Positions 27,708 through 63,569 of a DNA stretch of 64,000 nt are shown here, piece after piece. Source of the stretch: Nitrosopumilaceae archaeon (GTDB taxonomy: Archaea > Thermoproteota > Nitrososphaeria > Nitrososphaerales > Nitrosopumilaceae); the NCBI GenBank assembly GCA_965214835.1, contig CBDCCK010000002.1, positions 2,304,001 to 2,368,000 of the forward strand, in the 5' to 3' direction. The notes beneath the pieces are model-generated. The model ran no database searches, was not told the origin of the DNA, and saw only the letters and a program-made list of their open reading frames with translations. The stretch's first letter is position 1. The number at the start of each line of letters is the position of its first letter. The position numbers and the translations under genes are program-made.

Positions 27708-28862
27708 CTAATTCAAACGTGTAAGATTCTTTGGTAGCATACCCTTATTCATATCTGACACAGCATGAATGGATGAAAATTGCATGCTGATCGCATCTAT
27801 TTTGGCCATGTTACATAGCAACTTCTTCATGCCCTCAGTTAATGACTCCATGCGTTGATCAAAGAAGTCACTACCGATATCCATTATTATCGAACCTCGA
27901 ACCTTTTCATAATCACCCAGACCAATATCATGTTTGTCAATTCGATCTATTGCCTCTTTGGCAAAATACTGGATGAAAAATGGATATTGATCGGCATCGT
28001 CTATAATCAAAGAAATCAGATCGTCTGAAAATGTCCAGTATGTTTTTTCCAGTGGTTTGGTTATGGCCTCCTTTGATGCCGGTTTTGTCAGATTGGAGAT
28101 TTGTAGGAACTTGAACATTCTTTCAGAATAGGATCGTGCATTTTTGACGTTGATTGACATAGGCAAGCCAGACAGAACAAGGGAGTACCTAAAGCCCTTG
28201 GCCTGCACCTGATTTATTGCCCAATAAAGGCCGAAAGCGTATACCATCCGTTTTGTTTCATGTTCTGGATTGTATGAAATTCGTCTAACAGAAACACTGC
28301 GCCTTCATAGTTTTCCCGTACAAACTTTGATTTTTTGATCAAATAGTCTGCAATCTGATCCTCCACCGGTGCATTGGAATCCGGGTTGCAAGAGGGCTCG
28401 TAGGATATCACTCCTAGAATCCCTATGTTTTTTGACTTTAGATAGCTGACAGCTGATTGGATCTTTCCCTTGGTTCTTTCCGTCTTTGAAAATTCCTAGA
28501 TTGCAGTGTCAGGATCATGCCTTATTGTCTTGAAAAATTCTGTCGGATCAGAGTGCTGTTCGCTGTACTGCAGACGCAGTATGGGCAAAAATCCCTTATC
28601 GGTACAAATCTCTGCAAACTTATTCAGCAGTACAGTCTTTCCCATACCCCTGATGCCCTGCATCAGCAGGTTTCCAACCTTCCCTGCTTTGACGTCTTTG
28701 GATTCCAGCTGGCCGCGGTGGCCTTTGGAACTGCATCAGCAGGTTTCCAACCTTCCCTGCTTTGACGTCACGCAGTATGTGAGAGAACTTGTCAATCTCA
28801 TGGTCACGCCCTGCCAGATATGGCGGCATGAGTCCAGATCCTAGATTAAACGGATTGTGCAT
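27708..28862 (-). pseudogene. AAA/ATP-binding protein, fragmented
   Basis: NPF..GSG..PPYLAGR, Walker A GIRGMGKT, Walker B FLLDEF; stops, frameshifts and a 73-bp repeat-spacer insertion. Confidence 0.8.
28658..28769. repeat. 39-bp direct repeat pair with a 34-bp spacer
   Basis: CTGCATCAGCAGGTTTCCAACCTTCCCTGCTTTGACGTC at 28658 and 28731. Confidence 0.9.
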
Positions 28863-29098
28863 GCTTTCTGTTGTGCTCTGCCTAGATAAGCTTGTGAATC
28901 CCTGGTTTGTGTGGGGTGGCGTCCCCTGCCTGCCATGTATGAAAATCATAAATCCGCGCCTAGCCGGTCGGGGACAGGCGACACCGCACCTTGCTTTCCA
29001 AGCAATGCCTAAATACCCCCACAGTAGCGATCAGATATATCGGGAGACCGGTCTCCCCTTGAGGACACCCCCCTCAGTTCCCGGTCTCTTGATTATCC

Positions 29099-29932
29099 TT
29101 ATACTATCCTTTCAAACTCGGCTAGCTTGTCTTTGATTTGATCCTTTGTCTTGCCTGATATTTTCTTGGGATCAAACAACCCCTCCCTTGTGTTATTTTT
29201 GACAAACTCCAAATCAAACGTGCAGAGGCATCCCTCCTCTCCGGTTACCAGTCTTGCATCGTCAATTAGGACAGAGCTTGTCTGGTACGTCTCCACAAGC
29301 AGACTGTCCAGCTCGTCAAACAGATCCTGCTTCTTTTTTGCCATCCTCTGAAAATCCTCGTCGGCCGAGTCATGGATTTCGGAATAAATTTTCTCCCGCA
29401 GGCTGTCATTTTCAAACAAGACCTCAAATAACCTCTCGTGATCCAGATCCGCATATCCTGACTCCCTTAGCCGGTTCAACACGAACTGATCGCTTTGATC
29501 CGCCAGTGCGGCCTCTCTTTTCTTTGTCACATCCATTATTTCTGACAGTTCTTTTTGTGCCTCCACGACCCTGTGATCCGTCCTATAGTACAGCAAGACA
29601 TGGAATTGAATCGAGACGTGTCCTGAAAGCAAATAGTTGCCGACCTTGGTCTCAAACTTTGCAAAAATCCTCCTTATATCCTCATTGTTTGTGGTTGTAA
29701 GATCCTGCACCGACCACCCCTCAAGCTTTTGGATGATTCCCTTAAAGTAGCCCTGGACCAGGCCGGGATCAAACGTCATCTGCTCCGTTACCGTGGCGTC
29801 CCCCAGCATGACCTTTAGAGGAACCGATCTCGTGTGCACCTTCATCCTCGCAACGAACCCTTCCTGAATCCTTTCATTCAGATCGCCTAGCTCGGACATG
29901 AAGGCATCGGAGGATCTGCTGCCTATCCGCAT
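29099..29932 (-). CDS. Hypothetical protein
   Basis: 277-aa intact ORF with a coiled-coil segment and CLC motif. Confidence 0.75.
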   Translation of the reverse strand: MRIGSRSSDAFMSELGDLNERIQEGFVARMKVHTRSVPLKVMLGDATVTEQMTFDPGLVQGYFKGIIQKLEGWSVQDLTTTNNEDIRRIFAKFETKVGNYLLSGHVSIQFHVLLYYRTDHRVVEAQKELSEIMDVTKKREAALADQSDQFVLNRLRESGYADLDHERLFEVLFENDSLREKIYSEIHDSADEDFQRMAKKKQDLFDELDSLLVETYQTSSVLIDDARLVTGEEGCLCTFDLEFVKNNTREGLFDPKKISGKTKDQIKDKLAEFERIV

Positions 29933-30007
29933 GGCCTGAATCTGATCACTCCCACATTAAACCTTGAGCATCCTATCTTAAATATGCCAAAATCGTATCA
30001 TGGGTGT

Positions 30008-30124
30008 ATGAGCAAGATGCTGTGCAATAACTGCAATGGCGATCTGACCGAGTATTATCACCACGGATACGGGGGAAGGCGGGGAAAATGCCCCGACTGC
30101 AAGGTTGATTTCCCCCTAGAATAG
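30008..30124 (+). CDS. 38-aa zinc-ribbon microprotein
   Basis: MSKMLCNNC...GKCPDCKVDFPLE, ending 1 bp before the cyclase ORF; not in the ORF track. Confidence 0.6.
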   Translation: MSKMLCNNCNGDLTEYYHHGYGGRRGKCPDCKVDFPLE

Positions 30125-30125
30125 G

Positions 30126-30929
30126 GTGATTGTCATGGGTGATTCTGAAGAGCGTCCAATTCCAACCGGAAGAGACGCCCCCGACGTGGTAGACATGATG
30201 CTGGGCAAAAAGGACGGCACGGTAGTTGATCACGATACCATGATACAGGAAACCCAGACCAGGGTGTGGGGGGCACTGAAAAAGGGATACGAGTATGCCG
30301 GCCCCACGGATAACTCCGAGGAGTTTCTCCGGAAGAACGTATTCAAAAGAATCCAGATGGTTTCCCTGTATGTGGATCTGGTTGGCTCCACCCAGATGAC
30401 ACTGGAGCTGCCAAGCGAAAAAATCGCGATAATCATCAGCTCGTTTGCCCAGGAGATGGCATCTGTCGTGCACCAGCACGAGGGCTATGTCCTAAAGTTT
30501 GTGGGAGATGCCGTGATCGGGTATTTTGTTGCCGAGAAGAACTCGCTGCGCGCCGCAGACAATGCCGTAAACTGTGCAAAATCCATGATTACCGTAATAG
30601 AGAAGGGAATCAACCCGATCCTGAACCAGTATGACTATCCTGATCTGCTGGTAAAGATCGGCATAGACTATGGACAAAACATCATTGTTCGGTATGGCGC
30701 AGATGCCGAGCAGTCCCATGTGGATGTCATGGGGCCTGCAATGAATATCGCAGCCAAGATCCAAGGCATGGCAAAGCCAAACCAAATCCTGATCGGGGAT
30801 GACGTCTTTGCAAGGCTGCATCCTGAGACCCAGAAGGAGTTCAGGCTGATTGAATGGAAGAACAACGAATGGCGGTATCGCTCAAGGGTTACTGGCCAAA
30901 TTTACCCCGTCTACGAACACCTGCCTTAG
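30126..30929 (+). CDS. Class III adenylate/guanylate cyclase domain protein
   Basis: LYVDLVGST, KFVGDAVI, DVMGPAMNIAAKIQ. Confidence 0.9.
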   Translation: MIVMGDSEERPIPTGRDAPDVVDMMLGKKDGTVVDHDTMIQETQTRVWGALKKGYEYAGPTDNSEEFLRKNVFKRIQMVSLYVDLVGSTQMTLELPSEKIAIIISSFAQEMASVVHQHEGYVLKFVGDAVIGYFVAEKNSLRAADNAVNCAKSMITVIEKGINPILNQYDYPDLLVKIGIDYGQNIIVRYGADAEQSHVDVMGPAMNIAAKIQGMAKPNQILIGDDVFARLHPETQKEFRLIEWKNNEWRYRSRVTGQIYPVYEHLP

Positions 30930-31072
30930 ACGGTAAACCTATCCGGACACTCAACGTGCTCATAGTGGTGTTCGGTGAGCTTTTCCCTGACCACATAGAT
31001 CACAATCTTGTGTAGATCCGTGTACTTGATCTCCTTTTTGCACCTTGTGCAGTGCTTCTTTGTTTGGGCCAT
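30926..31072 (-). CDS. 48-aa putative zinc-binding microprotein
   Basis: MAQTKKHCTRC...HYEHVECPDRFTV; not in the ORF track. Confidence 0.55.
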   Translation of the reverse strand: MAQTKKHCTRCKKEIKYTDLHKIVIYVVREKLTEHHYEHVECPDRFTV

Positions 31073-31269
31073 TTGCGTAACTGCGATCAAAATGCCCTGT
31101 AGTATAAGGATCTGCGATCAGCTGTTTTTAACAAAAAATGACTCCAAGCTAGCTCTTGGGGTATATCTAGTGAATGCAATCAGCAGTCTGTTGCACGATC
31201 CTGGTTTTAGGCACGAAAGACCGGTAGCCTTTACGCGTCCAGACACGGCCATGCAAGACTGCTGTTTCC

Positions 31270-32576
31270 CAGTGACGGAAATGTATCCCCTTTAAATACA
31301 CCTGACAGACGGCAGCATAAAAAAACCCACCAAAAATGTAAGCAAATCTCTTACCATCACAGGCGGGGGCAGAATCAAGTTCTACAAACAGCATAACGTG
31401 CTATACGGACTGCCCCTAGTTTGTGATGGTTCTGGCCTCCATGTGCAGATCGGGCCAGACTGCTACAGGGGCGGTGCTGGAGTTCGAAGACAGTGAGAAT
31501 CTGCCCATTGCCAGATGGTTTCACGGGAAGGTCAGAACCGCGGGCCTTGACGGGACAAGGGAGATCTGCGCTGACATGGTGAAGACTGCAATCAAGGCTA
31601 CCAAAAAGGGCGGCATTCACAAAAAAGGCCCGGTCATGATTGCAATAGACCAGGCACGAGATACCTAGATACGACAAGGACAACATAAAGTACCTGATAA
31701 GATCAAAGCCCAAAAAGGGAACAAGCAGGTTCGAGGCGATGCGACCATGCAGGCAGTCGATTCCCCTGTCAACGCCACGCTCGGATGCATTCTGCTCGCA
31801 AGGGGGGGGATTTTGACGCCGACTTCGTGCGTAAATTCGTGGATATTCTCAGGAAATTAAACACAAGGCAGCGCCTTTTTCTACCGGATCGGGAGTTCTA
31901 CTCGGTCGACATAATGACAGAAATGCGCCATGCAAGAAAAGTTTTTGATGCCTGCAGTCAAGAACATCTCTATTGCCTTTTTTACGGTGATGGCACACGA
32001 GGCAGGCAGGATCGACGAGAGCTGCGTGTCAGGCTTTGCCATCAGGAACAGCAAATGCAGGACCTCGTCGTTTAGCCTGGTCATCGTGCCGTCTGCCATG
32101 CACGGCAAAAAGGACAAGACTGTAGTGGAGCAGTACGTGGCATTTGCCACCAATCTCCCGTTCTCCAACGCGCTGCACGAGATCGATACTGCCTCGCAGG
32201 ACTACCGGAAGAGGTGGGGAATAGAGACAGGATGCGTGCAGATAGAGCAGATACGGGCCAAGACCACGAGCAGGAACTAGGACATCAGGCTGCCTGTGTT
32301 CTTTGTGCACCGCCGCCCGCGATTACGTTCTCGGCAGTCATCATCAGGAACTAGGACATCAGGCTGCCTGTGTTCTTTGTGTCTGTATTTGTGTACAACA
32401 TGTGGGCCATCGAGCGCAACAGGGATGACATATGGTGTATGAAAAGGGATCTTACACTGTTGCGGATTGCATGTGTGCTTCTCATGGCTGCCAGAAGAAA
32501 CCTTGCAGAATACGGGTTTGCCGGCCCGCCGCCGTAGGGCTGCGGTGGCTTTTGGGGGTTACATTTCCGTCTACTG
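31270..32576 (+). mobile_element. Degenerate ISH3-family IS with a pseudogenised transposase
   Basis: TIR CAGTGACGGAAATGTATCCCC / GGGGTTACATTTCCGTCTACTG; fragments IAID, DREFYS, YRKRWGIETG. Confidence 0.8.
32271..32381. repeat. 37-bp direct repeat pair with a 37-bp spacer
   Basis: CAGGAACTAGGACATCAGGCTGCCTGTGTTCTTTGTG at 32271 and 32345. Confidence 0.9.
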
Positions 32577-32620
32577 GAATGTAGCAAAGGCAGAAATACA
32601 CCCGTTTTTCAAGAAAAACC

Positions 32621-32998
32621 ATGGATAAAGAGCTCCTAGAGCACATGAAGACGCTGTTTGGCCTGAATCCCGACGCGGTGCCGCCAGGATTACAGTTTCC
32701 CAGACTGCCTCCCGGACTCATGCATCCGATGACCAGCCAATTTGCCGTCCCTCAAAGAAGGACTGCACAGGATGCTGCGTCCCTGACTCCCAGCTTGGAG
32801 GAATTTCAGCAGGCCTATCAGAGACATGCGTCGGGACTGCTCAACTCGCACTATCCTGGGGTCGTACCTCCGGGACATCCGCTATATGAAAAACATGCAT
32901 CCGCCAGTATCCTGAGATCTGAAAACGACAAGCTGTTAAAGGAAAACCTCGAGCTTAAAAAACAACTAGACGAGATGGCAAAGCCTGGATCCCACTAG
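32621..32998 (+). CDS. Hypothetical protein with a C-terminal coiled coil
   Basis: 125 aa, Pro-rich, PPGHPL motif, leucine-zipper-like tail. Confidence 0.65.
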   Translation: MDKELLEHMKTLFGLNPDAVPPGLQFPRLPPGLMHPMTSQFAVPQRRTAQDAASLTPSLEEFQQAYQRHASGLLNSHYPGVVPPGHPLYEKHASASILRSENDKLLKENLELKKQLDEMAKPGSH

Positions 32999-33196
32999 CC
33001 CTCAGTAGTCACTGTGAAATTTCATCTGTATCATCAGATAAATGAAAAGTACCCCAGCCAGGCAGAAAATCAAGGAATTTAGGCCATCTTGGCAACACTG
33101 CAGATGCAAACAGATCAATTGGGGTGGTGAGGATCCCTCTGGAATAGGAACGCTTTTTTTCGCACACTTTTTGAGTTAGGAGGTCGAATCACAGAT

Positions 33197-33487
33197 ATGA
33201 GCAAGAAAACATGGAGTGCGCAGGACAAGATAGAGATAGTCATGGAGCAGTTCAACACCAACATCGAGACGGCAGAGCTGTGCCGCCGTCACAGCCTCTC
33301 CCCTAGGACGTTTTATCAGTGGAGGGAGCGCTTTTTGCAGGCAGGATGCGCCTCGCTGTCGGGTAGAGGCCACAAGTCAACGGAGGAGCAACAGCAAAAG
33401 GAGATCGAGTCGCTCAAGAAAATAGTTGGGGAGTACGCCGTGGCCAATGCGGCATTAAAAAAAACCTTGGAGACAGGCAACAGGTGA
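33197..33487 (+). CDS. IS3-type transposase OrfA (HTH), orphan
   Basis: ELCRRHSLSPRTFYQWRERFL plus zipper; A-rich run near the end; downstream part interrupted by an IS. Confidence 0.8.
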   Translation: MSKKTWSAQDKIEIVMEQFNTNIETAELCRRHSLSPRTFYQWRERFLQAGCASLSGRGHKSTEEQQQKEIESLKKIVGEYAVANAALKKTLETGNR

Positions 33488-33495
33488 CGGCCGCA

Positions 33496-35494: not shown

Positions 35495-35553
35495 TTGCAA
35501 GCTTTGCAATACCCACTTGCAAGCTTTGCAAAAAAACTTTGCAAGCTTTGCAA
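35495..35553. repeat. Three 15-bp near-palindromic repeats with a 22-bp period
   Basis: TTGCAAGCTTTGCAA at 35495, 35517 and 35539. Confidence 0.85.
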
Positions 35554-39400: not shown

Positions 39401-39413
39401 TGCAAGGCGTACT

Positions 39414-39534
39414 AGACCCGACAGTATGGAACACGACAGTTGTTGCTGCTGCAGTTAATTCGTGCATGTGGAGTTTGACATACTGCCACACAAGACCCGA
39501 CAGTATGGAACACGACAGTTGTTGCTGCTGCAGT
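39414..39534. repeat. 41-42-bp direct repeat pair with a 37-bp spacer
   Basis: AGACCCGACAGTATGGAACACGACAGTTGTTGCTGCTGCAGT at 39414 and 39493. Confidence 0.9.
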
Positions 39535-40674
39535 AGTCAGCCCATCAAATATCGGAACATCTTTACCGGTAGGATCTCTCCGCTGGTAAACAGATTCCGC
39601 ACGGACTGCTCCATCTCATCAAGCGTATCAAACACCTTGGCAGACAGCCTCCGCTTTATCTCCCTCCACTGTATCTCTACAGGATTGAGCTCCGGCGTGG
39701 ACGGCGGCAGGTACTCCAGTATTATCTCGCCCTTGTACTTTTCCAGCGTCTTCCTTACGCCGACAGACTTGTGGTATGACGCATTATCCAGGAATATCAA
39801 CACCTTTCCGTACTTTTCGTGCACCTTTTCCAAAAAGTCGCAAAAGCTGTTGGTGTTGGTCTTGTCATAGAACATATAGTAGAATATGTTAACTGCCAGC
39901 ACGCCGAACATGTACCGGCGCTGCCGTGACAGCGTCAAGGGCGCCGTGACGCTCATGCCGCGCCTGATCCACCCGTGTTTGGGGCTGTTTGAGGTCTTTT
40001 GTATGGATGACTCGTCTTCTGCCAGTACCGTATACCCTTGCGCCTCCTTTTCCCGTATCAGCTCCTGGGATGCCTCCTTGAACTCGTTCTGCTTTTGTTT
40101 TGAGACGGCCTTTGGGTTCTTGGGCCTCGGCTTCCTCCATGAGAACCCAAGCTCGCGTGCCAGCAGCCGCGTGCCGCTCTTGCTGTATTCTATGCCGAAC
40201 TTCTTTTTGATGTGCCGTCTCATCAGGCCCGAGTCCCACAGGCTGCTCTCAAAACCGCACTCCTCGGATCCTGACTTGAGATCCGCCGCAAGCTGTTTCA
40301 GCTGCGACTCACTCAGCTTGTGCTTGCGTCCCCTGCCTGGCCGCTCGTGCCTTGCACGTATTCCCTCGTCCTGTGCGCGGATGAGCCACTTGGATATGGT
40401 GGAATGTGCCCGGTCGAGGTTCTTTGCTATCTGTTCCACACCGAGGTCGTCCTTGCGCTGCATGTATGCAAGCAGCCTGTCGCGCTTTCTCTTGTCTGTC
40501 TCCTTTTTGTATGCCTTGTGCAGGTAGGAGCGTGACGTATTTGGCAGGAATTTGCTCCCTGATGCTACGAATTCCTTTCTCTGTCTGTCCATGCATATGC
40601 GCATTCCTTGCCTGATCTTAATGTTTGGATCAAAAATAGTTGTCAAAATTGTTCTTTTTTTTATATATTGACTA
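39534..40674 (-). mobile_element. IS630-family IS (transposase about 39537-40604)
   Basis: TAGTCA/TGACTA ends; AEDES, LDNASYH, PELNPVE motifs. Confidence 0.88.
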
Positions 40675-40849
40675 AGGTCAGAAAAGGGGATGAAAATGAC
40701 GGAGGCCATGTGTACAGTATACGCCATGTGCGAGCTGCGCGGCGTCAACTTTTGCTCGTTCGTAACGGACTATCTTGACGGCAGGGTCACGGAGATCCCG
40801 ATGCCTGCTCGGTGCGTCGGTGCGGCGGTAGCAGTATAACGGACAATTG

Positions 40850-41316: not shown

Positions 41317-41324
41317 CCGAAAAG

Positions 41325-51946: not shown

Positions 51947-53309
51947 TAACACGGCGGCGTTCCCTCCACCACACATACAAAAGCTGGCATGCGGCTTTAA
52001 TTACATCAGCGCAGGTGCCGTGGACGAGGACAGAATCCTGTGGAGTGACAGTGTTCTAGGCCCTGCCCAGTTCAACACCCCGGGCGGCGACGCACCCAGA
52101 ATAAAGCCCGAGATAACCGCAATCGGCGTAGATCTTGATCTTGCACGGGCCGCAGATACTAGAAGTATGATAAACCGCGACTATGAAATAGACTCCGGTA
52201 CGAGCTTTGCCACCGCCTTTGTGGCAGGTGCCAGTGCCCTGATCCTAGAAAAGCAGCCGGACTACCGGCATCTGGAGATAAAGTCCGCACTGATGCTTGG
52301 CGCAGACTGGCAGGCAGACACGCCGGCGACGGCAGCAGACTATGATGACCGGAGGGCCGGGATATACGATACCATGAACCGGTACGGCTTTGGCATACTC
52401 AACGCAACGAGATCCCTTGACTATGCCAACGACAACCAGTACCCAAACGTCCTGTACGACCAAAGCTCAAGCGACTTTGAGGTAAATTCGTACAGGATAT
52501 ACGCAGGCGCAGGCGAGCAGGTAAAGGTGCTGCTGTCATGGCTGGTGCATCCGAGAGGCACGGTACTGTCGCCCACCCTTCCAATCGGCAGCCCGCACAT
52601 CCAGCTTCCAAGCCAGTACCACAACTATGACCTCGCGGTGACGCTTCCCAACGGCGTGACAAGGACAAGCGACTCTGACGTCCAGAACAACGAGTTTGTC
52701 GTGTTTGACGCACCAGAGACCGGATTCTACACCATCACCGTGAGCTCCGACGGGACGCTGACGACTGCCGTCGGCGAGCCGTACACCCTGGCAAGCACTC
52801 ACGGGATAGACAAGTTCCCATACGACCTCGTCGTCCCGGTCACGGAGTTCGCAGACGACTTTGAGTCGGACCTCTCAAAGTGGGACATCTCCGGCGACTC
52901 TGACTGGGAGACGGGGGACCCCGACGAGGACGTGCCCGGCGAGAACAGCCGGACAAACCAGGCGCTCATATCAAGCAACTGCGACATTGTCTGCATCGCC
53001 ACGATATCCTCGACGTTTGACACGCAGGACGCGCTGACCATCTCCTTTGACAGGTTCGTCGACTCCAACGTCGATGCCGGGGAGGGCCTGTTTGTAGAGT
53101 ACTCTGCAGACGGAACCAGCTGGACCGGCCTTGCAAGCTATACCCACGACAACCGCGAGGACAGCGACTCGTGGAGCAGTGAGTCCCTGTCCTTGGATAT
53201 AACGGATGACACCGCAATGATCAGGTTCGTGGCAAAGTCCAGCTCCTCAAGCGAGCATGTCGAGATAGACAATGTTGCAATAATGGAAAGTAACGGAGGC
53301 GGACCCTCG

Positions 53310-54710
53310 GACACGACTGACCCCGTAATCACCGTGCCCGCAGACGTCACGGCCGAGGCTACCGGCGTACTGAGTATGATATCCATAGGGCAGGCCACGG
53401 CCACCGACAACCTGGATCCCGACCCGGCAATCACAAACGACGCACCAGAGTCGTTTCCCCTAGGCAGCACGACAGTCACGTGGACTGCCACGGATGATTT
53501 CGGCAACACGGCCACTGACACCCAGACTGTTACGATACGGGACACGACGCCGCCCATGATCACGGTGCCTGCAGACCGTACCGCGGAGGCCGCCGGCGTA
53601 CAGACTGCCGTATCCATAGGGCAGGCCACTGCCACCGACATTGCAGATCCCGACCCGGCAATTACAAACGACGCACCCGCGTCGTTCCCGCTCGGCGATA
53701 CGGTAATCACATGGACTGCCACAGATGATTCGGGCAACGTGGCCACTGACACCCAGACTGTTACGGTTCAAGATACCACGCCGCCGAGCATCACGGTGCC
53801 TGCTGACCATACAGCAGAGGCCACCGGCGTGCTGACCACAATATCAATAGGGCAGGCTACGGCCACCGACAACCTGGATCCCGATCCTGTCATCACGCAC
53901 GACGCACCGGAATCGTTCCCGCTAGGCAGCACGACAGTCACGTGGACTGCCACGGATGACTTTGGCAACACAGCGACTGCCACCCAGACTGTTACGATAC
54001 AGGACACGACACTGCCGAGCATAACCGCACCACCAGATGTCACAACCGAGGCCACCGGCGTGCTGACTGTAACATCCATAGGGCAGGCCACCGCCACCGA
54101 CAACCTGGATCCCGACCCGGCAATCACAAACGACGCACCGGAATCGTTCCCGCTCGGCGACACCATAGTGACATGGACTGCCACTGATTCCTCCGGCAAT
54201 GCTGCCACGGCCACACAGACCGTGACGATACAGGACACCACGCCGCCGAGCATCACAGCACCCGCCGATCATACGGCCGAGGCTGCCGGCATCATGACAA
54301 TCCTGAATGCCGGCGACTATGGGACTCCCGCCGTGTCTGACATTGCCGATCCCAGCCCCACAATCACAAACGACGCACCGGAATCGTTCCCGCTCGGCAA
54401 CACCACGGTAACGTGGACTGCCGCCGACTCTTCGGGCAATGCCGCCACGGCCACACAGACCGTGACGATACAGGACACCACGCCGCCTGCCATATCCGGC
54501 CTGCGCAACATAAACGTGGATGATCCGGCGGGCCGGGGAATGGAAGTCAGCTATGATGCGCCTACAGCTACAGACCTCGTGGACGGGGTCGTGGCAGTAT
54601 CGTGCACGCACGAGTCGGGATCGACGTTTGCGCCCGGATTCACCGAGGTGTCATGTATGGCGACAGACGGCTCTGCAAACTCGCTGCGGGACTGGTTTAT
54701 CATACACGTG
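53310..54710 (+). repeat. About six tandem HYR-like domains (~228 bp units)
   Basis: Repeated DTTPPSITxPAD...FPLGxTxVTWTATD units. Confidence 0.85.
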
Positions 54711-56349
54711 GACGCATCTGACGCCATCCTGGACGTCTCGCAGACCGTGAGCACGGGCCGGTCCACGTGGAGTGTCACGGGCCCCGACAGGATATTCGCG
54801 GGGCAGACCTTCGAGTATACCGTAACCCTCGAGGACGGGGCGAGGCCCAGGGAGGAGGCCCTTGCCGTGTACAGCGCTGCGCCGGATACGCGGTACCTCG
54901 GATGGCATGATCCCGATGCAGACTGCCAGACTATATTGTGCGCGGGGTTTCCCGAACAAAAGCACAACACGTACAAGATAGCCAGTGACGAGGACTCGCC
55001 GTATACTGCCATGCACAACAAGATGAAAAAGTCCAGATCCAGCCACACCATACTACTGCAGCCGGCAGCCGACGCGCCGGCGGGGGCGCAGGCCACAGTC
55101 GGCATGCTGGACGCCAGCTACAATCCTGTGGGAGGCATACCGGTAACGGTACTGCCGCCGTCCACGAGGACGGTAACGGACGGGGACACCACCTGGAGGA
55201 TCACGGGCCCCGACAGGATATTTCCGGGACAGACATTCGAGTATACCGTGACCCTTGATGGCACAAGGCACCAACACGACGCCCTTGCCATATACAGCGA
55301 CTCGCTTACGGTGGACGACTTTGGGGGACTCGCGGATGACTCTGCATGCGGCACGACCGTATGCACGGACTTTCCGGGGCAGCGGCGCCGCACGATGGAG
55401 CTTGACAACCACGCAGGCTCGGTATACGACGTGAGGTACCACACGATCAACGCGCCCGGCTCCCAGTATACGATACTGCTGAGGACCGCCGACGACGCAG
55501 ACGCGGGAGGCGCGTTCAGGGTAGGCCTGGTGGACGGGGACGGGATCCCCATTGGCGGCATACGGGTCACGATCGCCGATCCCGTGGCTGTAACGGGCCC
55601 CTATGAGGAGCTCGTGGCGGGCCTGTCCTTTGAGGGCAGCTTGGCAGATGCGACGGGGGACAACAACGGCACGGCGGCCACAGGGGATGCCACGTACGTG
55701 CCTGGCAGGATAGGCAGGGGGCTGCAGCTTGACAACTCCTCTCATGTAGTCCTTGCAGAAGAGGCCGACTTTGACTTTGGGCGGAGCGACCCGTTCAGCA
55801 TGGCGTTCTGGCTCAGGCAGGATGTGCCTCAGACTGCCAGGTCCATGATCCTCTCCAAGGCAGAGTCGTTTGGCCGTCCTGGCGCATACGTGTTTGTGTG
55901 GGACGGGGCGCCCAACAGGGTCCTGCTCCTGCTGTATGGAAACTCTTCTTTCATAAACGTGCACACACCGCAACACCTGAACATGTCAGACGGCGCCTGG
56001 CACCACATGGCATTCACGTACGACGGCTCGGGCGCCAAGGAGGGCCTCAACGTATACGTGGACGGCGAACACCGGGACTATGACCACTTCCGCAGGGGCG
56101 CGGGGCTGACAGGCAACATGACAAACGACCATGCGTTTACCATAGGGGCATCCGGCCTGGGGGAGCACGGCATATCCGATGCGGCACTTGACGAGCTGCG
56201 CGTGTACGATACCGAGCTGTTGGCCCGGCAGGTGCGGCTGCTGCATGCGGCAGGCCTAGGCTAGCCTGTGCGATCACGGTGGGCCCAGCCTGCGACAGGA
56301 GTTCGTACCGGCCGGTAAGGATTCTCAAAGTACTTCATGATCAGACACC

Positions 56350-56460
56350 CCTGCAAACGGACGATGACATTGAAGGATTTGTGACAAACTAGGAAGGCGA
56401 CGGGGTACGGCAAAAACGAGTGATCCTGCAAACGGACGATGACATTGAAGGATTTGTGAC
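56350..56460. repeat. 36-bp direct repeat pair with a 39-bp spacer
   Basis: CCTGCAAACGGACGATGACATTGAAGGATTTGTGAC at 56350 and 56425. Confidence 0.9.
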
Positions 56461-56695: not shown

Positions 56696-56720
56696 TCCAT
56701 ATCAAATTATTCTGGTTCCC
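56696..56720 (-). mobile_element. Isolated end of the IS110 element joined to a MITE terminus
   Basis: GGGGAAAA-CT-TCCATATCAAATTATTCTGGTTCCC, compare 60428-60462. Confidence 0.7.
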
Positions 56721-56785
56721 GGGGGGTACCGCTCAAATATTGGATCCTTGGTAGCAAAATTCATAACTGAATTACCAGAGCTAGA

Positions 56786-57019
56786 TCAGCTATGATCATG
56801 GGCGGTGGACATTCTATATTTTTTCAATAAAAACAATCCGACGATAAAAGGTATGAAGATAACAGCAAGTGTATAGCTTATAGACACGATGTTTCCAAGT
56901 GTGTCTGTTTGTTCTGTCATAATTACAAATGATGGGACGTACAATATTAATGAGATTGTGCCCATAATTCCATGTGCTATTAATGCATAACAGATTATTT
57001 TTAATTTTTTAGAGGACAT
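56786..57019 (-). CDS. Small two-TM membrane protein
   Basis: 77 aa, AT-rich, starts 14 bp after the restored upstream gene. Confidence 0.6.
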   Translation of the reverse strand: MSSKKLKIICYALIAHGIMGTISLILYVPSFVIMTEQTDTLGNIVSISYTLAVIFIPFIVGLFLLKKYRMSTAHDHS

Positions 57020-57033
57020 AGAAAAAAAGGGAG

Positions 57034-58092
57034 TTAGTTAAGATATATGTTCGATATGGTTGTGGAGAGCGTTGCACTATATGTGGCAGGAATATATGTG
57101 GTTCTTGTATATGTTTCACAGTCACCAGCATCAGAATGTGTGACTTCTTCGTCGTGATTAAAATGATATTGAGTCTGGCCAAAAATGTTTTTGGTGTTTC
57201 CATTAGAATTCACTTCGAAGTCAACACTGTTGTGATGTGTAGGGCTGTCAAGACATGTGATGGGGGTTGTCGCCTAATTCGCTAGAATCCCCGAAAACCG
57301 TTGAGATGCCATATGATCAGGCGTGCAAAAGGGCGGAAATTCAGAAAAACGTGCAGATTGGGTCAAATAAGTGGAATTAGGCGACAACCTCCATGTGATG
57401 GATTCATACGTGACGGTACCTCCACTTTGGCTAGCTATAAACCCCCATGAAGAAGTACTAGTGCCTTGATTCCAGCCATATGTTATCACTGGGAAAGGGA
57501 TTGTTGCAGGACCGTATCCGAAAAGAGGAATAGTCAATATTGATGTTCGCTTCAAAGCTAGATCTGTTTGATGAACATAATGTAAGGTTGAATTCTCATC
57601 ACTCATACTTACGTTCTTTGTTTTAGGCGTCTCCATTGCTGTTTTTGCAGCAAGTGCTCTTTCTTTCCAGTATTCCGGGTTTGCATCAAACCTATCTTTG
57701 GTTGTAACTCCATACTCTTCCAACTCAAAATATAGAGTCGTAAGTTCCATCTCAAGTGCTCGAATTACTTGCTCTGATTTGTTTTGTTCTTTTGCTAGGT
57801 TCACCTGTTTTTCAGCCTCAGCTATATTTACTACTTTATCAAATATGAATGCCTCATAGCCACCAAGTGTACCGATGAAAGATCTTAGTTTTTCAATACT
57901 TTGTACTTTCTGCGTGTCTGAATGTTCTTCTAGAGTCTTTAAAACCCATTCTTCATATGCGGTTAGTTTTCCTATATCGTCCATGTCTTGTTTTGCTTCC
58001 ACTGCTTGTATTCCTGAAAACATCATTATGGTAATCAGAGATGCGAACAGTATCGTTTTTGCGTTTTTTGCAATCATTGCCTGCCCTATCAT
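57034..58092 (-). pseudogene. Secreted protein interrupted by a MITE
   Basis: KTILFASLI signal peptide; removing the MITE and one duplication copy restores the frame YESITCLDSP...ISNIYLN. Confidence 0.8.
57263..57391. mobile_element. 129-bp MITE with a 9-bp duplication
   Basis: TIR GGGGTTGTCGCCTAATTC; CATGTGATG on both sides; ends resemble the IS at 60516. Confidence 0.9.
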
Positions 58093-58378
58093 TCTTCATT
58101 ATATAGGCAGCTATATCCTGATCTGGAGTGCCTTTTCTGAACGGCCTACGCAATGATGGCAGTGCCAGCATCTCCGGCTTGGCAGCAGCAGTGACAACCA
58201 GACGGGGGCATGTGGGAGCTGCTTTCCGCACGGTTGGATCCTGACAGGTGCGGCCGTTCTTCCTGCCTGCAGGCGTGATAGAAGAAACACATGCGCGACA
58301 GAATTCGCGCTTGCATAATGCCTGAACATCCAAGCGATATCCGGCATTACCGCATAATCACAACTACGATTACAATTC

Positions 58379-59522
58379 TATAATCCAAAAAGTAGTTCAC
58401 CCCTTCTCCGAGGGTCAAGTCGGTAAGGATCAGATGCACGGGCCTCATGCATGCCACTGGAAACAAGGGTGTGTGGGTCTGGCGCAAAAGGGCTGGTAAA
58501 TACGTCAGTCTTGCACGCCCCAACAACATGAATCTAAACAAGTCAGGCGTACAGTGGATAGTACGCCAAAAGCAAAAGGGAGACATGACAAACGCCCAGA
58601 TAGCCGAATCCATGAACGTCTCGGTCCGCTGGGTACAGAAACTGTGGGCCCGGCACAGGTCAGGCACCATACAGGACATATCGCACCCCGCACGGATGGG
58701 AAGGCCCCAGAACGGCATGCCCGGGCGCAGGGAGCACTCGGCGGTCCTCTCGGTGCGACCCTCCGAGCACCTGGGTGCGGCATCACTGCAGGATCTCATA
58801 AGGGAAAAGACCGGGATTAGTATCCCGCGACATACACTGCACGGCATGCTAAAGGACGAGGGGATGGCCAGAGACGAGCCCAACGGGCGCAGAAAACGCA
58901 GGTGGCTGCGCTGGGAGATGGAGTATTCCAACTCCATGTGGCACACCGACTGGAAGCAGATACACGGCGGAATGCACGACGGCAGGTGGTTTTTGTGCTA
59001 CGAGGACGACGCATCCCGGTTCGTGACCGGATACGGCATATTTGACAACGCGACTACAGAAAACGCCCTCAAGGTGCTTGACGGGGCCATGCAGAAGCAC
59101 GGCAGGCCCGCCTCCATAATGACGGACCACGGAAGCCAGTTCTATGCAAACGAAAAACAAGGCGCAAAGAGGGGGCACAGCGAGTTCGAGGAGAGCCTGG
59201 AGGCCCTAGGCATACGGCAGGTCCTTGCCGGGGTGCGCCACCCGCAGACAAACGGCAAGGTCGAGAGGCTGCACGGCGAGATACAGCGCAAGCTGCACGA
59301 GTTTGAGGATATCATGATGAGAACAAGCGATCCCATGGATCTATTCATGAAATGGTACAACTACGACAGGCCCCACATGTCCCTTGACCGGGAGAACCGG
59401 GAGACGCCGGCGCAGGCATATGAGCGCAAGATGCCTCCTGCGGGCGAAACGGTCATAGATGGGCAGACCAGGGAGGAATATCATGTCAGATAGGGGGGGT
59501 GAACTACTTTTCGGATCCCACA
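58379..59522 (+). mobile_element. IS481-family IS (transposase ORF to 59493)
   Basis: IR AAAAGTAGTTCACCCC / GGGGTGAACTACTTTT; WHTDW, EDDASR, TDHG, HPQTNGKVERL. Confidence 0.88.
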
Positions 59523-59557
59523 TCGCCTCCCGGCCAGCTCGTGGTTTATATAGTGAA

Positions 59558-60319
59558 ATGATTTTCGGATACCAGTGGTTCAAGCTAGTGTGCGGTGCGG
59601 CAAGCAGAAATGAGCGATTACAAAAAAAAAAAACAATCCCTGGCAAGCTAAAGTACTATTGCAAAAAGTGCGTCTCTGTTGCCACCACCCCGTGGCCACG
59701 TTCGGCTCAGTCGTTCTTGTATACGAAACTATTACGGTGGTATCTTCCTGCTAACGCAACAGTCGCACAGGTAAAGTCGGCAATACCGGATTTATTCGAA
59801 GGCAAATATTCCAGCGTCCTGTACATAGGTGCGAGTCACCTGAGACAACACTTTCTGGACGACTTTGTACGCATGTATGATCGTGTCGTAGTGCTTGAGA
59901 TCGATAAGAAAAACGCAGAATATGTCAGGCAGAAATTCGACCTGCCAGGAGTTACCGTGGTATGCGGTGACGTACGCAATACAGCGGACTTGACGGAGAG
60001 GGAATGGGGGGGCGGGCGGTTCGATGTATGCTTCTTTTACCACGGTTTGGAGCACCTGCCCAAGGAGGATGTCGCCGGCGTGCTAAACACGCTTGAATCC
60101 ATAACAGATCATATAATTGTGCTTGGAATGCCATACGGACATTATAAGCAGGATTCTGAATACGGGAACGTATACGAAAGACACCTTTGGGACATCTATC
60201 CGGGCGACATGCACCGGCTGGGATATCGAATCGACACGATGGGGGACGTAGACGACACCTTATCAAACATGATTGCTTGGAAGCGCACCGGCAAGAAGAC
60301 CTCTGGACTCAAAAAGTAG
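59558..60319 (+). CDS. Class I SAM-dependent methyltransferase-like protein (start uncertain)
   Basis: VLYIGAS, VVLEID, CGDVR, FDVCFFYHGLEHL. Confidence 0.7.
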   Translation: MIFGYQWFKLVCGAASRNERLQKKKTIPGKLKYYCKKCVSVATTPWPRSAQSFLYTKLLRWYLPANATVAQVKSAIPDLFEGKYSSVLYIGASHLRQHFLDDFVRMYDRVVVLEIDKKNAEYVRQKFDLPGVTVVCGDVRNTADLTEREWGGGRFDVCFFYHGLEHLPKEDVAGVLNTLESITDHIIVLGMPYGHYKQDSEYGNVYERHLWDIYPGDMHRLGYRIDTMGDVDDTLSNMIAWKRTGKKTSGLKK

Positions 60320-60351
60320 CCTGATGACGGTGTGGATCCCGTGCTTTCCTT

Positions 60352-60437
60352 GTAAGAGTTTACCCCTCCCCCAAGATACGACGTGGCAGGCGTGACCATG
60401 AAGGCTCCGGCCAGCAGTACCGCCTGAGGGGTAAACT
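60352..60437. mobile_element. IS66-type MITE whose right TIR is split by the IS110 element (last bases at 62152-62156)
   Basis: GTAAGAGTTTACCC...GGGGTAAACT|CATAC; body similar to 42660-42750. Confidence 0.8.
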
Positions 60438-60515
60438 CCCATATCAAATTATTCTGATTCCCTGCACGGGCCGCTGCGAGTGTGCGTTTCTCAGTCAGAC
60501 GTATTTACTAGACAC

Positions 60516-61713
60516 GGGGTTGTCCAAAAAATTTCCAAGAGGCTGCCATAATCTACCAGTCTGCCCCCGTATGTATGTAAATTCAGATGCAGAACGGGAC
60601 ATTTTCGGCCGGCCATGCGCAAAAGGCAACGTAAATATCCATGCGGGCCATACCTTACGGTAGTGCTGCGGTTCAACAACAGTACGGGTTATGATAAAAA
60701 ATTATACCGTAAGGTTGTAGCACAACACGCGAGCGAACAGCTCGACTGTAATGGTTCCGTCCAGTTTTGAGCGCAGGACGGATCCAGTCCTTTCCTTCAT
60801 TGCCGAGAACAGGGCCTCTACCTAGCTCCTCATGTGATAGGCGCGCCAGAACTCGTCTGGCCTGTCACGCAGCCACTGCAGCATCTTGGCCCGGGCACTG
60901 AACCCGCGGGGCTTTTCGTTTCCCTTTGCCGGCTTTATGGCAGGTCCGCGGCCGCTTTTTGCGATCAGCTCGCAGTTTTTGTACGAATCGTATGCCGAAT
61001 CCAGCGCCACTATGCCGTATCCTCCCTTTGGGATGCGGGAAAACATGCGGGCAAACTCCGGCGAGTCGGCCGATGTGCCAGGCGTGGCCTCAAATGACAG
61101 TATCCTGCCTCCTACTGCGCCTACTATGTGCAGCTTTGCAAAGTCGTGTCCTGTCATCTCCCCGTACTTGGCATGATGCCAGCTCTTGTACTTGCGGAGG
61201 CCAAACCCCGTCGAGTCACCATGCAGGTCCGCTATGCGCTCGCCGTCTGACATGGCCAGCACGACCTCGTCCATAAAGTCCTTGCCCATTTCCCAGAGCA
61301 TCTTCACCCTGTTGTGCAGGGTGGACTTGGAGAGTGTGTGGTCCAGGCCGCACCTCCTAAGATCGTCCGGATTTGTCTCCAGATGCGTGGCCATGATCCT
61401 GTAGGACAGGTGGTTCTCGATCCTGAGGATCGCAATGCGTATGGCAGACCATGCAAGTTTGGCATCGATTCCCGTTTTGTCCGCCATCTTCTTGGCCACC
61501 CTGCGCACGATCTTTCCCAGGTTCTTCCTTGCCCTCTTCTTGCGGGGGCTCTCCTGCCTGCGCTTTTGCTCGTAGAGTCGGTAATAACCTGTGTTCTTTC
61601 TGTCGTTACTCATTGAAATAGCCAGGATCGGCTGATCAAAATTGTTTTCGGCGTATTACGCCCATGATCTATAAGCTTAGCGGTCATTTTGAGGAAATTT
61701 TTTGGACAACCCC
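60516..61713 (-). mobile_element. IS5-like DDE IS; transposase 60822-61613 has a premature TAG
   Basis: 21-bp perfect TIR GGGGTTGTCCAAAAAATTTCC, 9-bp duplication ACTAGACAC; DSTG, KLH, DSAYD, RS*VEALFS. Confidence 0.88.
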
Positions 61714-61981
61714 ACTAGACACTCAATCATTTTATACTTTCTCTCCGTGAGATCTTTGTTCTGTGTGCGGTATTCGGTTTCATCAGCCAGCACGTGCCAG
61801 ATCACCTTTGCCAGCGTTCTGGCCACGACTGCCATCCTTGTTCCGTCGGCTGTGTTGGAAAACTCTGCCTGTTCCAGAATCCCTGCAGCCAGGTCCTTGA
61901 TGGCCGCTACACGCGTCTTCTTATGAACGTCTATTCCTATGTTGATCATTTTATCACCTCCTTTTTGATCAAAGTGTGTGT

Positions 61982-62100
61982 GCCCAACTGAACGGAAAAC
62001 TCCCATTCGCCCTCGATTATGTGGCATTTCGTTGTCCGCCTACTCTGAGCCAGTCTCTTACGCGCCCTCATATGTGGCAAGGTTACTTCGGCTCTTGGGC
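61982..62100 (-). ncRNA. Putative IS110 bridge RNA, copy 2
   Basis: Same three-stem, two-internal-loop fold as 81-196; differences fall only in loops. Confidence 0.72.
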
Positions 62101-62185
62101 CCAACACGGATAATATGGCGTCCGCTACAGATAAGATTTGATATAACGCCTCATACGATTTTTTTACTTTCGTATAGGATATGTG

Positions 62186-62400
62186 GTAACAGGATAGCCC
62201 CCAGCCAGAGTTGAAGTCATGTCCCCCCTTGCCGAACATCTTCTGCCCGCCGGAAGTCCGCAGTCCGAACCGTATCGTGCGAGCGATCACGCCGGGCCTC
62301 AGCGTGCGCTCGGCCAGGTTGTTGGTGGGATCCATCCCAAGATGCATCAGGAACGTGTAGAGAAACTCCGAGGCGTTCTCAAGCTTTGTGGCATAGCTGT
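62186..62400 (-). pseudogene. IS66 transposase C-terminal remnant with TIR
   Basis: KLENASEFLYTF...PTNNLAERTLRP; end GTAACAGGATAGCCCC. Confidence 0.75.
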
Positions 62401-62452
62401 TGGTGAGGACCCCGGGAAATGCCTGCCTGCCTGCCAGTATAAATAGGATCTG

Positions 62453-63569
62453 ATGATGTACAAGCGTATGGTGGTGGATTGGACGGCACTGCGCACGTGG
62501 TACTGGAACATCCGGCCGCACGACCATCGTGTGAAATGTCCCATATGCGGCCGTTCAAGACACGTCCAGAGGACGGATTTTAAAAAGCTCCCAAGGCACC
62601 CGGTGGCACACATGATTCTGCAAGGGAACAGGAAAAGCGCCCTTACATCCTTTCTCCGTGCCCCCCATGCAAGGGCAGGTTATGGCAGCCGAACCGGGAA
62701 CAGGAAAAGCGCCCTTACATCCTTTCTCCGTGTCCTGCCGGACTTTCTCATCATAGGAACAACCAAGTCGGCTACCACGTCGCTGTATGGTCTGATGTGC
62801 TCGCATCCACATGTGCTTCCTGCACGGGCCAAGGAGATAGGATACTTTGCCAGCACGTGGGCATACATGCACGGCCTGCAGTGGTACCGCACCCACTTTC
62901 CGACCGTACTGTACAAGCGCTATCTTGCATGGAGAACAGGTCGCAGGATGCTTACTGGTGAGGCCACCCCACAATACATGTTCTTCCCGGACGTGCCGGG
63001 CAGAGTCAAAGCCGTGCTTCCGGACGTCAGGATGATCGCCATCATGCGCAACCCCGTCGACCGCGCCTATTCGGAGTACAACATGCGGCTCAGAAAGGGG
63101 AAGGAGTCACTGACCTTTGAGGACGCAATATCTGTAGAGGGCAACAGGGTGTCGTATGAGCGGGAAAAGGCGGCATCGGATAGCAGATCCGACGGGTGTG
63201 ATCTTCACTTCTATCTGAGCAAGGGTCGCTATGCAGAGCAGCTGACTCGCTGGTACAAGTACTTTGACAGGAACCAGATCCTAGTCCTGACGACCGAGGA
63301 GCTGGGGGACGACAGGCAGGGCACGCTTGACAGGGTCTTTGGGTTTCTTGGACTGGAGCCGTTTGAGGTGGGGGGGGGAAACGGGCCGCCTGCCGAACCT
63401 GCCTTGGATGGGGAGGTACAAGTCCGAGCCGGGCGATCCCTTCAGGCTCAATGCGGGCAGCTACCCCCCGATGAGGCGCGACACGCGCAGGATGCTGGTT
63501 GACTATTTTCGTCCGCACAACGAGCGACTATATGATCTTTTGGGGCGCGGTCTTGACTGGGATCGGTGA
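62453..63569 (+). pseudogene. PAPS-dependent sulfotransferase, frameshifted at a G9 tract
   Basis: PDFLIIGTTKSATTSL, RNPVDRAYS; typical C-terminus YFRPHNERLYDLLG lies in another frame after 63370-63378. Confidence 0.85.
62624..62732. repeat. 37-bp direct repeat pair with a 35-bp spacer
   Basis: GGGAACAGGAAAAGCGCCCTTACATCCTTTCTCCGTG at 62624 and 62696. Confidence 0.9.

Follow-up and report, generated by a model that had tools for sequence, protein, structure and literature searches.

Off-target 'neo-CRISPR' integration by overexpressed type I-E Cas1-Cas2 was reportedly observed in E. coli by Nivala, Shipman and Church in 2018. The archaeal genome described here resembles that case in its spacer-sized inserts, its duplications of one repeat length, and its non-CRISPR target sites that weakly resemble the native junction. 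Whereas the E. coli events were induced, those described here are natural, occur in an uncultured archaeon, comprise about 47 fixed events with a 36-bp duplication, and are attributed to a type I-G Cas4/Cas1 fusion. A Cas1-family integrase is also at work in casposons, where staggered cutting again results in a duplicated target; casposons measure kilobases, carry inverted repeats at their ends and produce duplications of ~14-15 bp. Unlike these kilobase-sized elements, the inserts here are unique sequences of 34-40 nt flanked by 36-bp duplications, and the genome has no second Cas1.

In the accessible part of one source, evidence for natural off-target integration is called only 'circumstantial', and it concerns two other species (10.1101/148544). 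According to the available sections of a study of Pyrococcus furiosus, Cas1-Cas2 in vitro attacks off-target sites with a preference for G, then C, at the attacked base, and its paired integrations into non-CRISPR DNA are spaced by the length of one repeat. Both features recur here; those substrates were plasmids and the repeat was 30 bp long, whereas here the integrations are heritable, lie in the chromosome and are spaced by 36 bp (PMC6698737). Type I-G (then I-U) Cas4/1-Cas2 of Geobacter sulfurreducens is stated, in the portion of the report at hand, to select TTN and mostly 36-bp spacers (PMC6547450). The G. sulfurreducens and Methanosarcina barkeri I-G systems share with the present one a fused Cas4/Cas1, a TTN PAM, mainly 36-bp spacers, and the joining of the PAM end on the spacer side, but the integration they deal with is at the leader-repeat junction, and the word 'off-target' is absent from the main text of both studies (PMC6547450; PMC10504553). 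Ectopic spacer acquisition in streptococci likewise takes place away from the leader-proximal repeat; those events reportedly fall on true repeats within the array, whereas here unrelated genomic sequences are involved (PMC7999890 and others). The mechanism itself is already known, and what is new here is its natural scale.

Repeat-insert-repeat units in the window

The window, that is, the whole 64,000-nt stretch of DNA that was analysed, lies on contig C2 of the assembly and contains all five repeat-insert-repeat units reported in the initial annotation, with the same insert lengths of 34, 37, 37, 39 and 35 nt. Their duplicated sequences differ from one another and from the native CRISPR repeat. 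Unit 1 has two identical 39-nt copies of its target (28658-28696 and 28731-28769; 100% identity, period 73), and its 34-nt insert (28697-28730) is, on the minus strand, an exact copy of C2:2292664-2292697, a source that has a TTC PAM on the minus-strand reading. Unit 2 has 37-nt copies (32271-32307 and 32345-32381; 100% identity, period 74) around a 37-nt insert (32308-32344), and unit 4 has 36-nt copies (56350-56385 and 56425-56460; 100% identity, period 75) around a 39-nt insert (56386-56424). The copies of unit 5 span 40 nt with one mismatch (62624-62663 and 62696-62735; period 72), 37 nt of which are exact (62624-62660 and 62696-62732), and enclose a 35-nt insert (62661-62695). For the inserts of units 2, 4 and 5, no source was found in the genome and no exact match in viral_contigs.

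Three of the units had been placed in coding sequence. This stands for unit 5, which lies within an ORF (62453-63502, plus strand) recognized by Pfam as a sulfotransferase and remaining open across the entire 72-nt insertion. For the 'ATPase' at unit 1, Pfam gave no family for the ORF pieces, and unit 3, assigned to a transposase gene, is in the end of the IS630-like element, immediately 3′ of the stop of its DDE_3 transposase ORF and outside the coding part. Hairpins noted in three units are nothing special; folding z-scores range from -1.6 to +0.5 against shuffled sequences, and that of the native repeat is -3.2.

Scars across the genome

About 47 scars of spacer-sized DNA inserted into ordinary genes and mobile elements are present in this archaeal genome. 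A scan for direct repeats with at least 33 of 36 matches, restricted to non-tandem loci outside the native arrays, gave 23, 11, 4 and 10 loci at periods of 72, 73, 74 and 75 nt (48 in total), and 0-4 loci at each of the remaining periods between 60 and 83. The excess at periods 72-75 is far beyond chance, and, as had been anticipated, the joint length peak equals the repeat and spacer lengths of the host CRISPR. Exact duplications are 36-39 nt long in 32 of 49 unique units (36 nt in 15, 37 nt in 11, 38 nt in 3 and 39 nt in 3), which is close to a 36-bp stagger lengthened by chance matches. In some units, however, chance matches are not enough to account for the length beyond 36 nt (unit 1 has 39 nt, unit 3 has 42-45 nt), and this counts against off-target integration as the explanation. 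Of the best 36-nt windows in the tabulation, 31 match perfectly and 16 carry one to three mismatches, and therefore the scars are of differing age. In some cases copies of a scar have been carried along with their IS or genomic segment.

The inserts are 34-40 nt long and unique, belonging to no element family, and a third repeat copy, sought in 45 units, was found in none; each unit consists of two copies only. A canonical CRISPR array was rejected as an identity for the units on the grounds of the two copies per unit, the different repeats throughout and the lack of a native-like hairpin; an IS or MITE with a target-site duplication was rejected on the grounds of unique inserts of 34-40 nt and duplications of 36 bp. 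About 14 of the insertions shift the frame of ORFs of at least 150 codons. In-frame insertions are only weakly enriched (26/46 versus 43% expected, p = 0.04), and this enrichment is not specific to coding regions, which counts against the integration explanation.

The native type I-G system

A Cas1 encoded outside the window, as the initial annotation supposed, was found in the form of a single Cas4/Cas1 fusion accompanied by Cas2 of type I-G. The adaptation module, comprising the fusion and one Cas2, lies at C2:2480012-2482006, ~112 kb past the window end. The fusion is one intact ORF of 566 aa that scores 755 bits to NF049935 (Cas4g/Cas1g), and it is the only match to PF01867 (Cas1) in the whole genome; a casposon was rejected as the source of the units since there is no second Cas1. 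After cas4/cas1 come cas2, a 170-nt leader, 148 repeats, and then cas3g, cas8g2, cas7g and csb2. By NCBIfam the type I-G gene set is complete (cas4/cas1 fusion, cas2, cas3g, cas8g2, cas7g (csb1) and csb2), with cas8g2 at 100.8 bits, under its 125-bit cut-off. The array has a 36-nt repeat and spacers of 35-40 nt, and its counts at periods 72, 73, 74 and 75 (45, 53, 18 and 16) match the periods of the scars.

The units are thus very probably off-target spacer integration scars of the host's own type I-G Cas4/Cas1 fusion plus Cas2. The promiscuous Cas1-family integrase that had been proposed would be nothing other than the ordinary adaptation module of this system, rather than a separate and exotic enzyme. 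The initial interpretation is otherwise largely borne out, and the checks it suggested all turned out in its favour.

Origin of the inserts and PAM

A search for protospacers of the inserts recovered sources with a common TTC/TTG PAM. Of 45 core inserts, 14 have matching stretches of 28-38 nt at another place on the chromosome, so that the view of the inserts as captured foreign DNA does not hold for about a third of them, which derive from the host's own chromosome. Chromosome matches among the native spacers amount to 0/147 (Fisher p = 2.6e-10). All eight full-length protospacers have a 5′-TTC or TTG, six directly adjacent and two one base off; the probability of at least six adjacent PAMs in eight is 3.9e-5. 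The single native spacer with a target, which lies on contig C1, also has a TTC PAM. Four of the source sites lie close together, at the putative origin of replication. For the other 31 of the 45 inserts the genome search gave no source, and the three window inserts tested against viral_contigs had no exact match there.

Target-site preference

Target sites are non-random; G is favoured at the attacked position and T is disfavoured two bases before it. Among 74 junctions, C occurs at -4 in 34, T at -2 in only 1, G at +1 in 35 and G at +4 in 33, and the log-likelihood of the junction motif is 147 as against 71-102 in 20 random-site controls. The common GTG(NC) edge pointed out earlier for some units is a reflection of this junction bias. 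Between the units and the native leader plus repeat there is a real but weak likeness (z = 3.1, 28 units), and motif and PAM indicate the same orientation in only five of eight units; the weakness of the likeness and this poor agreement count against the integration explanation.

Unit 3 and the IS630-like element

Unit 3 lies in an IS630-like element, at its 3′ end. Its copies span 45 nt with one mismatch (39411-39455 and 39490-39534; period 79), and the 42 nt starting at 39414 are exact (39414-39455 and 39493-39534), with a 37-nt insert of 'type A' between them (39456-39492); 2 nt separate the right copy from the transposase ORF (39537-40748, minus strand). The element has four identical copies in the genome, sister copies are empty or carry a different insert, and diverged members of this IS family share the type A insert at ~85% identity. 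Whether the structure could be native to the element, for example as subterminal binding sites, with single-repeat copies arising by later deletion, has to be weighed for this unit only. Nine diverged copies (73-78% identity) do hold the whole repeat-insert-repeat structure, the period of 79 and the 42-45 nt duplication are off the main peak, and direct repeats do promote deletion. However, the same pair of repeats encloses unrelated inserts of equal length (type A, at least eight copies; type B, two copies), single-repeat sister copies with matching flanks exist for each insert type, and the diverged type A copies have a period of ~74 (38 + 36), which is CRISPR geometry. A built-in feature is therefore unlikely. 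Unit 3 is an older scar in the IS630-like element that was later transposed, rather than the fifth recent and independent event that had been counted.

Integrity of the assembly

An assembly or sequencing artefact, by which the duplications and inserts would be chimeric consensus errors, is the least probable of the explanations weighed here, to the point of being hardly credible. The genome is a two-contig assembly seen as assembled sequence rather than raw reads, and among the public runs no contig spans a whole unit, as these are short-k contigs broken inside the repeats. Yet contigs of three runs from two studies stop at 28687, 30 nt into the left copy of unit 1, and restart at 28740, exactly as a real 39-nt duplication predicts, and at unit 2 a joint that skips 74 is seen in runs X3 and X6. 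The earlier call for spanning reads is thus answered by predicted breaks rather than by spanning contigs, and the best-holding public run may itself be the source sample of the assembly. In addition, identical scars occur in several IS or segmental copies, some scars carry one to three mismatches, the scar geometry is identical to that of the native array, and insert sources are flanked by a PAM, which an artefact would not know.

Empty sites and congeneric genomes

Empty sites, expected from the outset, are present both in paralogs and in a congener. Of 53 loci, 19 have a paralog in which the target is present as a single copy. An empty paralog of unit 2 lies near C2:2597637-2597972 and one of unit 5 at C2:1844814-1845087; for unit 4 there are C2:2717321-2717630, counted among the 19, and C2:3190918-3191142, from the raw matches. 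Congener G002 has a single copy at the sites of units 1 and 4, the latter at G002:C39:6348-6383.

In another congener, G004, the Cas4/1 is an ortholog with 65% identity and the repeat is almost the same, yet 0-1 candidate scars occur in 800 kb versus ~11 expected at the density of this genome. Something lineage-specific is therefore needed. Since G004 has the same system without the scars, Cas4/1-Cas2 alone may not suffice, and this, together with the 31 of 45 inserts that have no known source, speaks for a Cas-independent process: short DNA would be copied into staggered breaks by template switching in the course of repair or replication, or by an unknown mobile element. Template switching would yield broad lengths, however, and not a 36-bp stagger with 36-39-nt inserts beside TTC/TTG; no element family unites the inserts; and with a sole Cas1-family gene there is no casposase. 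A Cas-independent origin is thus very improbable, and Cas4/1-Cas2 integration remains the preferred explanation.

Proposed mechanism

From these observations we infer Cas4/1-Cas2 as the agent, as well as the order of its two attacks. First, the complex would capture a prespacer of ~36-39 nt adjoining a 5′-TTN PAM, in many cases from the host chromosome and with the putative replication origin as a hot spot. Second, it would make two staggered attacks ~36 bp apart in ordinary DNA instead of at the ends of the leader-proximal 36-nt repeat. Finally, gap repair would duplicate 36, sometimes 37, bp on either side of the insert. The resulting units are most likely inert because their false repeats lack the hairpin of the native repeat and never gained a second spacer. 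Such inertness would account for the persistence of self-derived inserts in the units and their absence from the real array.

Implications

On balance we lean, by a modest degree, toward a lineage-specific burst in which promiscuous Cas4/1-Cas2 was a genuine source of insertion mutations in this symbiont-like archaeon, with at least 47 fixed events, ~14 of them frame-shifting, whose scars would be an unselected record of naive capture in which self DNA is heavily sampled and the replication origin is a hot spot, those at IS ends having been multiplied by transposition. Such a record would be preserved because the false repeats are not processed. If this is true, the multiplication of IS-end scars would be a route that seeds new CRISPR-like repeat units around the genome.

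The natural record is unusually large for an error known mainly in vitro and from laboratory E. coli with overexpressed Cas1-Cas2; it offers dozens of natural, datable events together with sources, PAMs, target sites and empty sites. For the screening of other genomes, a joint peak in the lengths of duplication and insert is a simple signature. With these events it becomes testable what adaptation costs the host, how Cas4/1-Cas2 recognizes its target in the absence of the leader, what naive acquisition samples before autoimmunity purges self-targeting spacers, and whether new arrays are born from scars.

Duplications of CRISPR length

The initial annotation had read five repeat-insert-repeat structures of the window, at 28658, 32271, 39414, 56350 and 62624 (units 1–5), as scars of natural off-target spacer integration by a Cas1-family integrase, and all five repeat pairs were recovered by a repeat search of the window. 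The exact duplications measure 39, 37, 42 (45 with one mismatch), 36 and 37 (40 with one mismatch) nt, the start-to-start spacings are 73, 74, 79, 75 and 72, and the duplicated sequences are unrelated to one another. The source genome (G000; 3.22 Mb in contigs C1 and C2, the window being C2:2304001-2368000) was scanned for exact repeats with a seed of 20 and a distance of ≤1000, and 160 of the 1412 non-tandem pairs fall in the cell of 35–39-nt repeats with 35–39-nt gaps, adjacent cells holding 0–18; the bulk of these 160 come from a single large CRISPR array, C2:2482178-2492954. A second scan, which tolerated up to three mismatches in 36 and left out arrays and tandem repeats, yielded 23 loci at period 72, 11 at 73, 4 at 74 and 10 at 75, with 3 each at 71 and 76 and 0–4 at the remaining periods from 60 to 83. 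Higher counts are confined to periods divisible by three, as protein repeats typically give (6 at period 84, 7 at 114 and 12 at 126). The native array has periods of 72 (45 cases), 73 (53), 74 (18) and 75 (16), so that the sharp joint peak of repeat and spacer length predicted from the window is present, the scars sharing the periods 72–75 with the array.

After removal of obvious tandem and protein repeats (C2:65000, 112405, 480476, 1727198, 2211484, 2212075 and 2476420), 53 loci were kept, 49 of them unique. A core of 45 units further omits 35551 and 1973493, which are repeat-rich or tandem-like, and 1736693, which is tallied separately as type B of an insertion sequence (IS) family; unit 3, with its period of 79, lies outside the period filter. 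The exact duplication is 36–39 nt long in 32 of the 49 unique units (36 in 15, 37 in 11, 38 in three and 39 in three), about what is expected of a 36-bp stagger with chance extension of the match into the flanks.

Other repeats were also met. A 14-nt unit stands in about six tandem copies at window positions 63559-63642, and a 68-nt direct-repeat family (62–76% identity) forms two pairs with 108–114 nt spacing, 9.6 kb apart, at 995-1176 and 10709-10884, which are probably repeats inside paralogous coding sequences. A 1414-aa ORF (52020-56264) that stops 86 nt short of unit 4 encodes six HYR domains together with a subtilase fragment and a laminin-G-like domain. The ribosomal protein L24 gene (C2:2475820-2477028; 11821-13029 of locus excerpt L003), an ORF of 402 aa, extends into an acidic tail of about 290 codons made of tandem 66–75-nt repeats, which was caught by the period scan and has no relation to CRISPR.

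The native type I-G system

The native array consists of 148 copies of a 36-nt repeat, with spacers of 35 (7), 36 (45), 37 (54), 38 (18), 39 (16) and 40 (4) nt and odd ones of 26, 41 and 51 nt. The integrase that had been placed outside the window has one candidate: the genome gives one Pfam match to Cas1 and one to Cas2. The Cas1 ORF (566 aa) carries an N-terminal Cas4 domain and scores 755 bits to NCBIfam NF049935, "Cas4g/Cas1g". This cas4/1 fusion gene is followed by cas2, a 170-nt leader and the array, beyond which lie an IS630-family transposase, cas3g, cas8g2 (below its cut-off), cas7g/csb1 and csb2; judged by these gene assignments, the system is of type I-G. The array was oriented by the side on which cas2 and the leader lie, by the ATTGAAGC 3′ end of the repeat and by the single PAM-bearing target; terminal-repeat decay was discarded as a guide, since the last repeat is intact. 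A decayed second locus near C2:130-136 kb comprises a cas3g fragment (6078-7262 of locus excerpt L005) and a short variant array; this small array (C2:135893-136330) has two repeat variants and one spacer occurring twice.

The ribosomal and proteasome genes upstream of the cas locus are archaeal, and the nearest Cas4/1 relatives come from Nitrosopumilus, Nitrosopumilaceae and Cenarchaeum MAGs. The closest non-archaeal relatives (locus excerpts L054-L074; about 45–52% identity) belong to Caldilineaceae, Dehalococcoidia and other bacterial MAGs, and protein similarity hints that the adaptation module may have been transferred between domains. A tRNA-Asn(GTT) gene (L003:15747-15823) lies about 190 nt upstream of cas4/1, and the CRISPR-cas locus may belong to an island that integrated beside it. 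Read-through from the ribosomal-protein cluster, as a cause of high Cas4/1 expression, is no more than a weak possibility: in this genome the cluster stops at L6, with L19e elsewhere at 320 kb, a small ORF and the tRNA-Asn gene separate L6 from cas4/1, and the upstream genes differ in the congener G004.

Sources of the inserts

When all inserts were compared with the genome by BLAST, 14 of the 45 core inserts proved to be copies of 28–38 nt from elsewhere on the chromosome, as against none of the 147 native spacers (Fisher p = 2.6e-10). A shared PAM was found: the eight full-length sources are flanked on one side by TTC (five), TTG (one) or TTG one base off (two), the chance of at least six of eight having an adjacent TTC or TTG being 3.9e-5. 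Native spacer 41 (C2:2485136) has a target at 6365-6401 of the 13-kb contig C1; the target carries a TTC PAM and differs from the spacer solely at the first spacer base (36 of 37 positions matching). C1, the element so targeted, was co-assembled with the genome. Cas4/1-Cas2 of G. sulfurreducens is reported to use an upstream TTN and to acquire spacers predominantly of 36 bp (PMC6547450), and the PAM end is reported to be joined at the spacer side (PMC10504553), which agrees with the orientation of the single native example, the target of spacer 41.

The other 31 core inserts are without an identified source; three of these, the inserts of units 2, 4 and 5, were tried by exact matching against viral_contigs and gave no match. 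Four of the 14 self sources lie within C2:900193-906409 (P ~1.5e-8, post hoc), which covers an Orc1/Cdc6 gene (900127-901338) and the gene for the PolD small subunit (DP1) and is directly preceded by the PolD large subunit (DP2) gene and a 33%-GC stretch. These features make the region a likely replication origin, and the concentration of sources suggests that prespacers are captured preferentially near the origin.

Empty sites and reality of the structures

If the duplications arose by insertion, sites with a single copy should exist, and they do. Spanning queries against the genome itself revealed paralogs whose flanks meet over a single copy for 19 of the 53 loci, among them window units 2, 4 and 5. 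In the congener G002, the homologous regions, both on its contig C39, are single-copy for unit 1 (77% identity; overlap of 38 nt) and unit 4 (84–91%; 36 nt).

An assembly artefact was considered with public sequencing runs, nine of which, from five studies, contain parts of the window stretch. Four runs were compared with the window in the form of contigs, with uncovered parts and depth figures excluded from the evidence. The contigs of run X1, from study P1, and of X3 and X6, both from P2, stop at 28687 and resume at 28740. Each break falls 30 nt into a copy of unit 1, which is what short-word contigs (word length taken to be 31) should show on meeting a true 39-nt duplication. No public-run contig over the window spans a whole unit. 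The empty-form joint of unit 2 has a much higher depth in the run contigs, presumably from other copies or strains.

Target-site preference

Both junctions of 37 units (74 junctions) were pooled, orientation not being chosen. C occurs at -4 in 34 of the 74, G at +1 in 35 and at +4 in 33, and T at -2 in one. A two-class motif model scores 147, as against 71–102 for 20 random-site sets. It agrees with PAM orientation in only five of eight units; orienting units by the site motif was therefore set aside, and the claim is limited to the pooled junction bias. The sites are slightly more similar to the native leader and repeat than expected (15.3 identical positions of 46 versus 13.9 ± 0.45; 28 units). 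The same G-then-C preference is reported for off-target integration by P. furiosus Cas1-Cas2 in vitro (PMC6698737). The hairpins once ascribed to some units did not hold: the five window repeats show no folding advantage over shuffled sequences, and hairpins are thus not a site feature.

Unit 3 and the IS630-like element

Unit 3 is located at one end of an IS630-like element, where 2 nt separate it from the stop of the transposase, and is present in four identical genome copies. Diverged copies of the element (73–78% identity) likewise contain two repeats, the period being about 74, and the first impression was of a built-in IS feature. Alignment of further copies shows three states at one site: a single repeat (three copies); two repeats around insert A (at least eight copies, that of the window included); and two repeats around insert B (two copies, including the C2:1736693 unit). 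There is no relation between inserts A and B, and for either type a sister copy exists that matches in the flanks but is empty. From this alignment, we read the site as a favoured one that would have received two independent old integrations, later multiplied by transposition; as the repeats are near-identical in the window subfamily (44/45), this reading needs putative gene conversion. One copy of a multicopy element holds two separate scars 200 nt apart (C2:1301320 and 1301520), with repeats partly decayed in both.

Consequences and distribution

None of the 45 units has a third repeat copy, and no hairpin like that of the native repeat is seen in the pseudo-repeats. In 26 of 46 units, an open frame of 150 codons or more runs through the site in the restored sequence, and 14 of these insertions are frame-shifting; the sulfotransferase ORF that contains unit 5 is lengthened by 24 codons and is still open. 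No selection on frame is claimed, in-frame insertions being weakly enriched (26/46, p = 0.04) and not coding-specific.

The 282 kb before the cas locus hold 14 of the 45 units versus 4 expected (post hoc P = 7e-5), and the 300 kb after it hold two. This dense region, approximately C2:2200000-2482000, includes the whole window; cas proximity, distance from the origin and regional tolerance are all candidate causes. Multicopy DNA, considered as the reason for scar location, leaves the regional cluster unexplained: flanks are multicopy in 6 of 45 units versus about 16% of the genome by a crude exact-20-mer measure.

Relatives and the place of the finding

Among 40 other genomes searched, four relatives have orthologous Cas4/1 (57–68% identity). 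The repeat of G004 is near-identical to the native one, and the matches listed for the sampled stretch include 35 copies of it. The 800 kb examined of the 4.3-Mb G004 genome contain no clear scar and one possible candidate, where about 11 would be expected at the density of G000 (P = 1.6e-4); this near-absence argues for a lineage-specific burst.

The literature on neo-CRISPR events, on spacer integration that is off-target, ectopic or non-canonical, and on CRISPR in sponge-associated Thaumarchaeota, surveyed largely at the level of abstracts, yielded no report of scars like these in a natural genome. Nivala 2018 is credited by a citing preprint (10.1101/148544) with circumstantial evidence from two other species. 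The mechanism is of a known kind, off-target Cas1-Cas2 integration, and this genome is a new and unusually rich natural instance of it, in a type I-G archaeal system.
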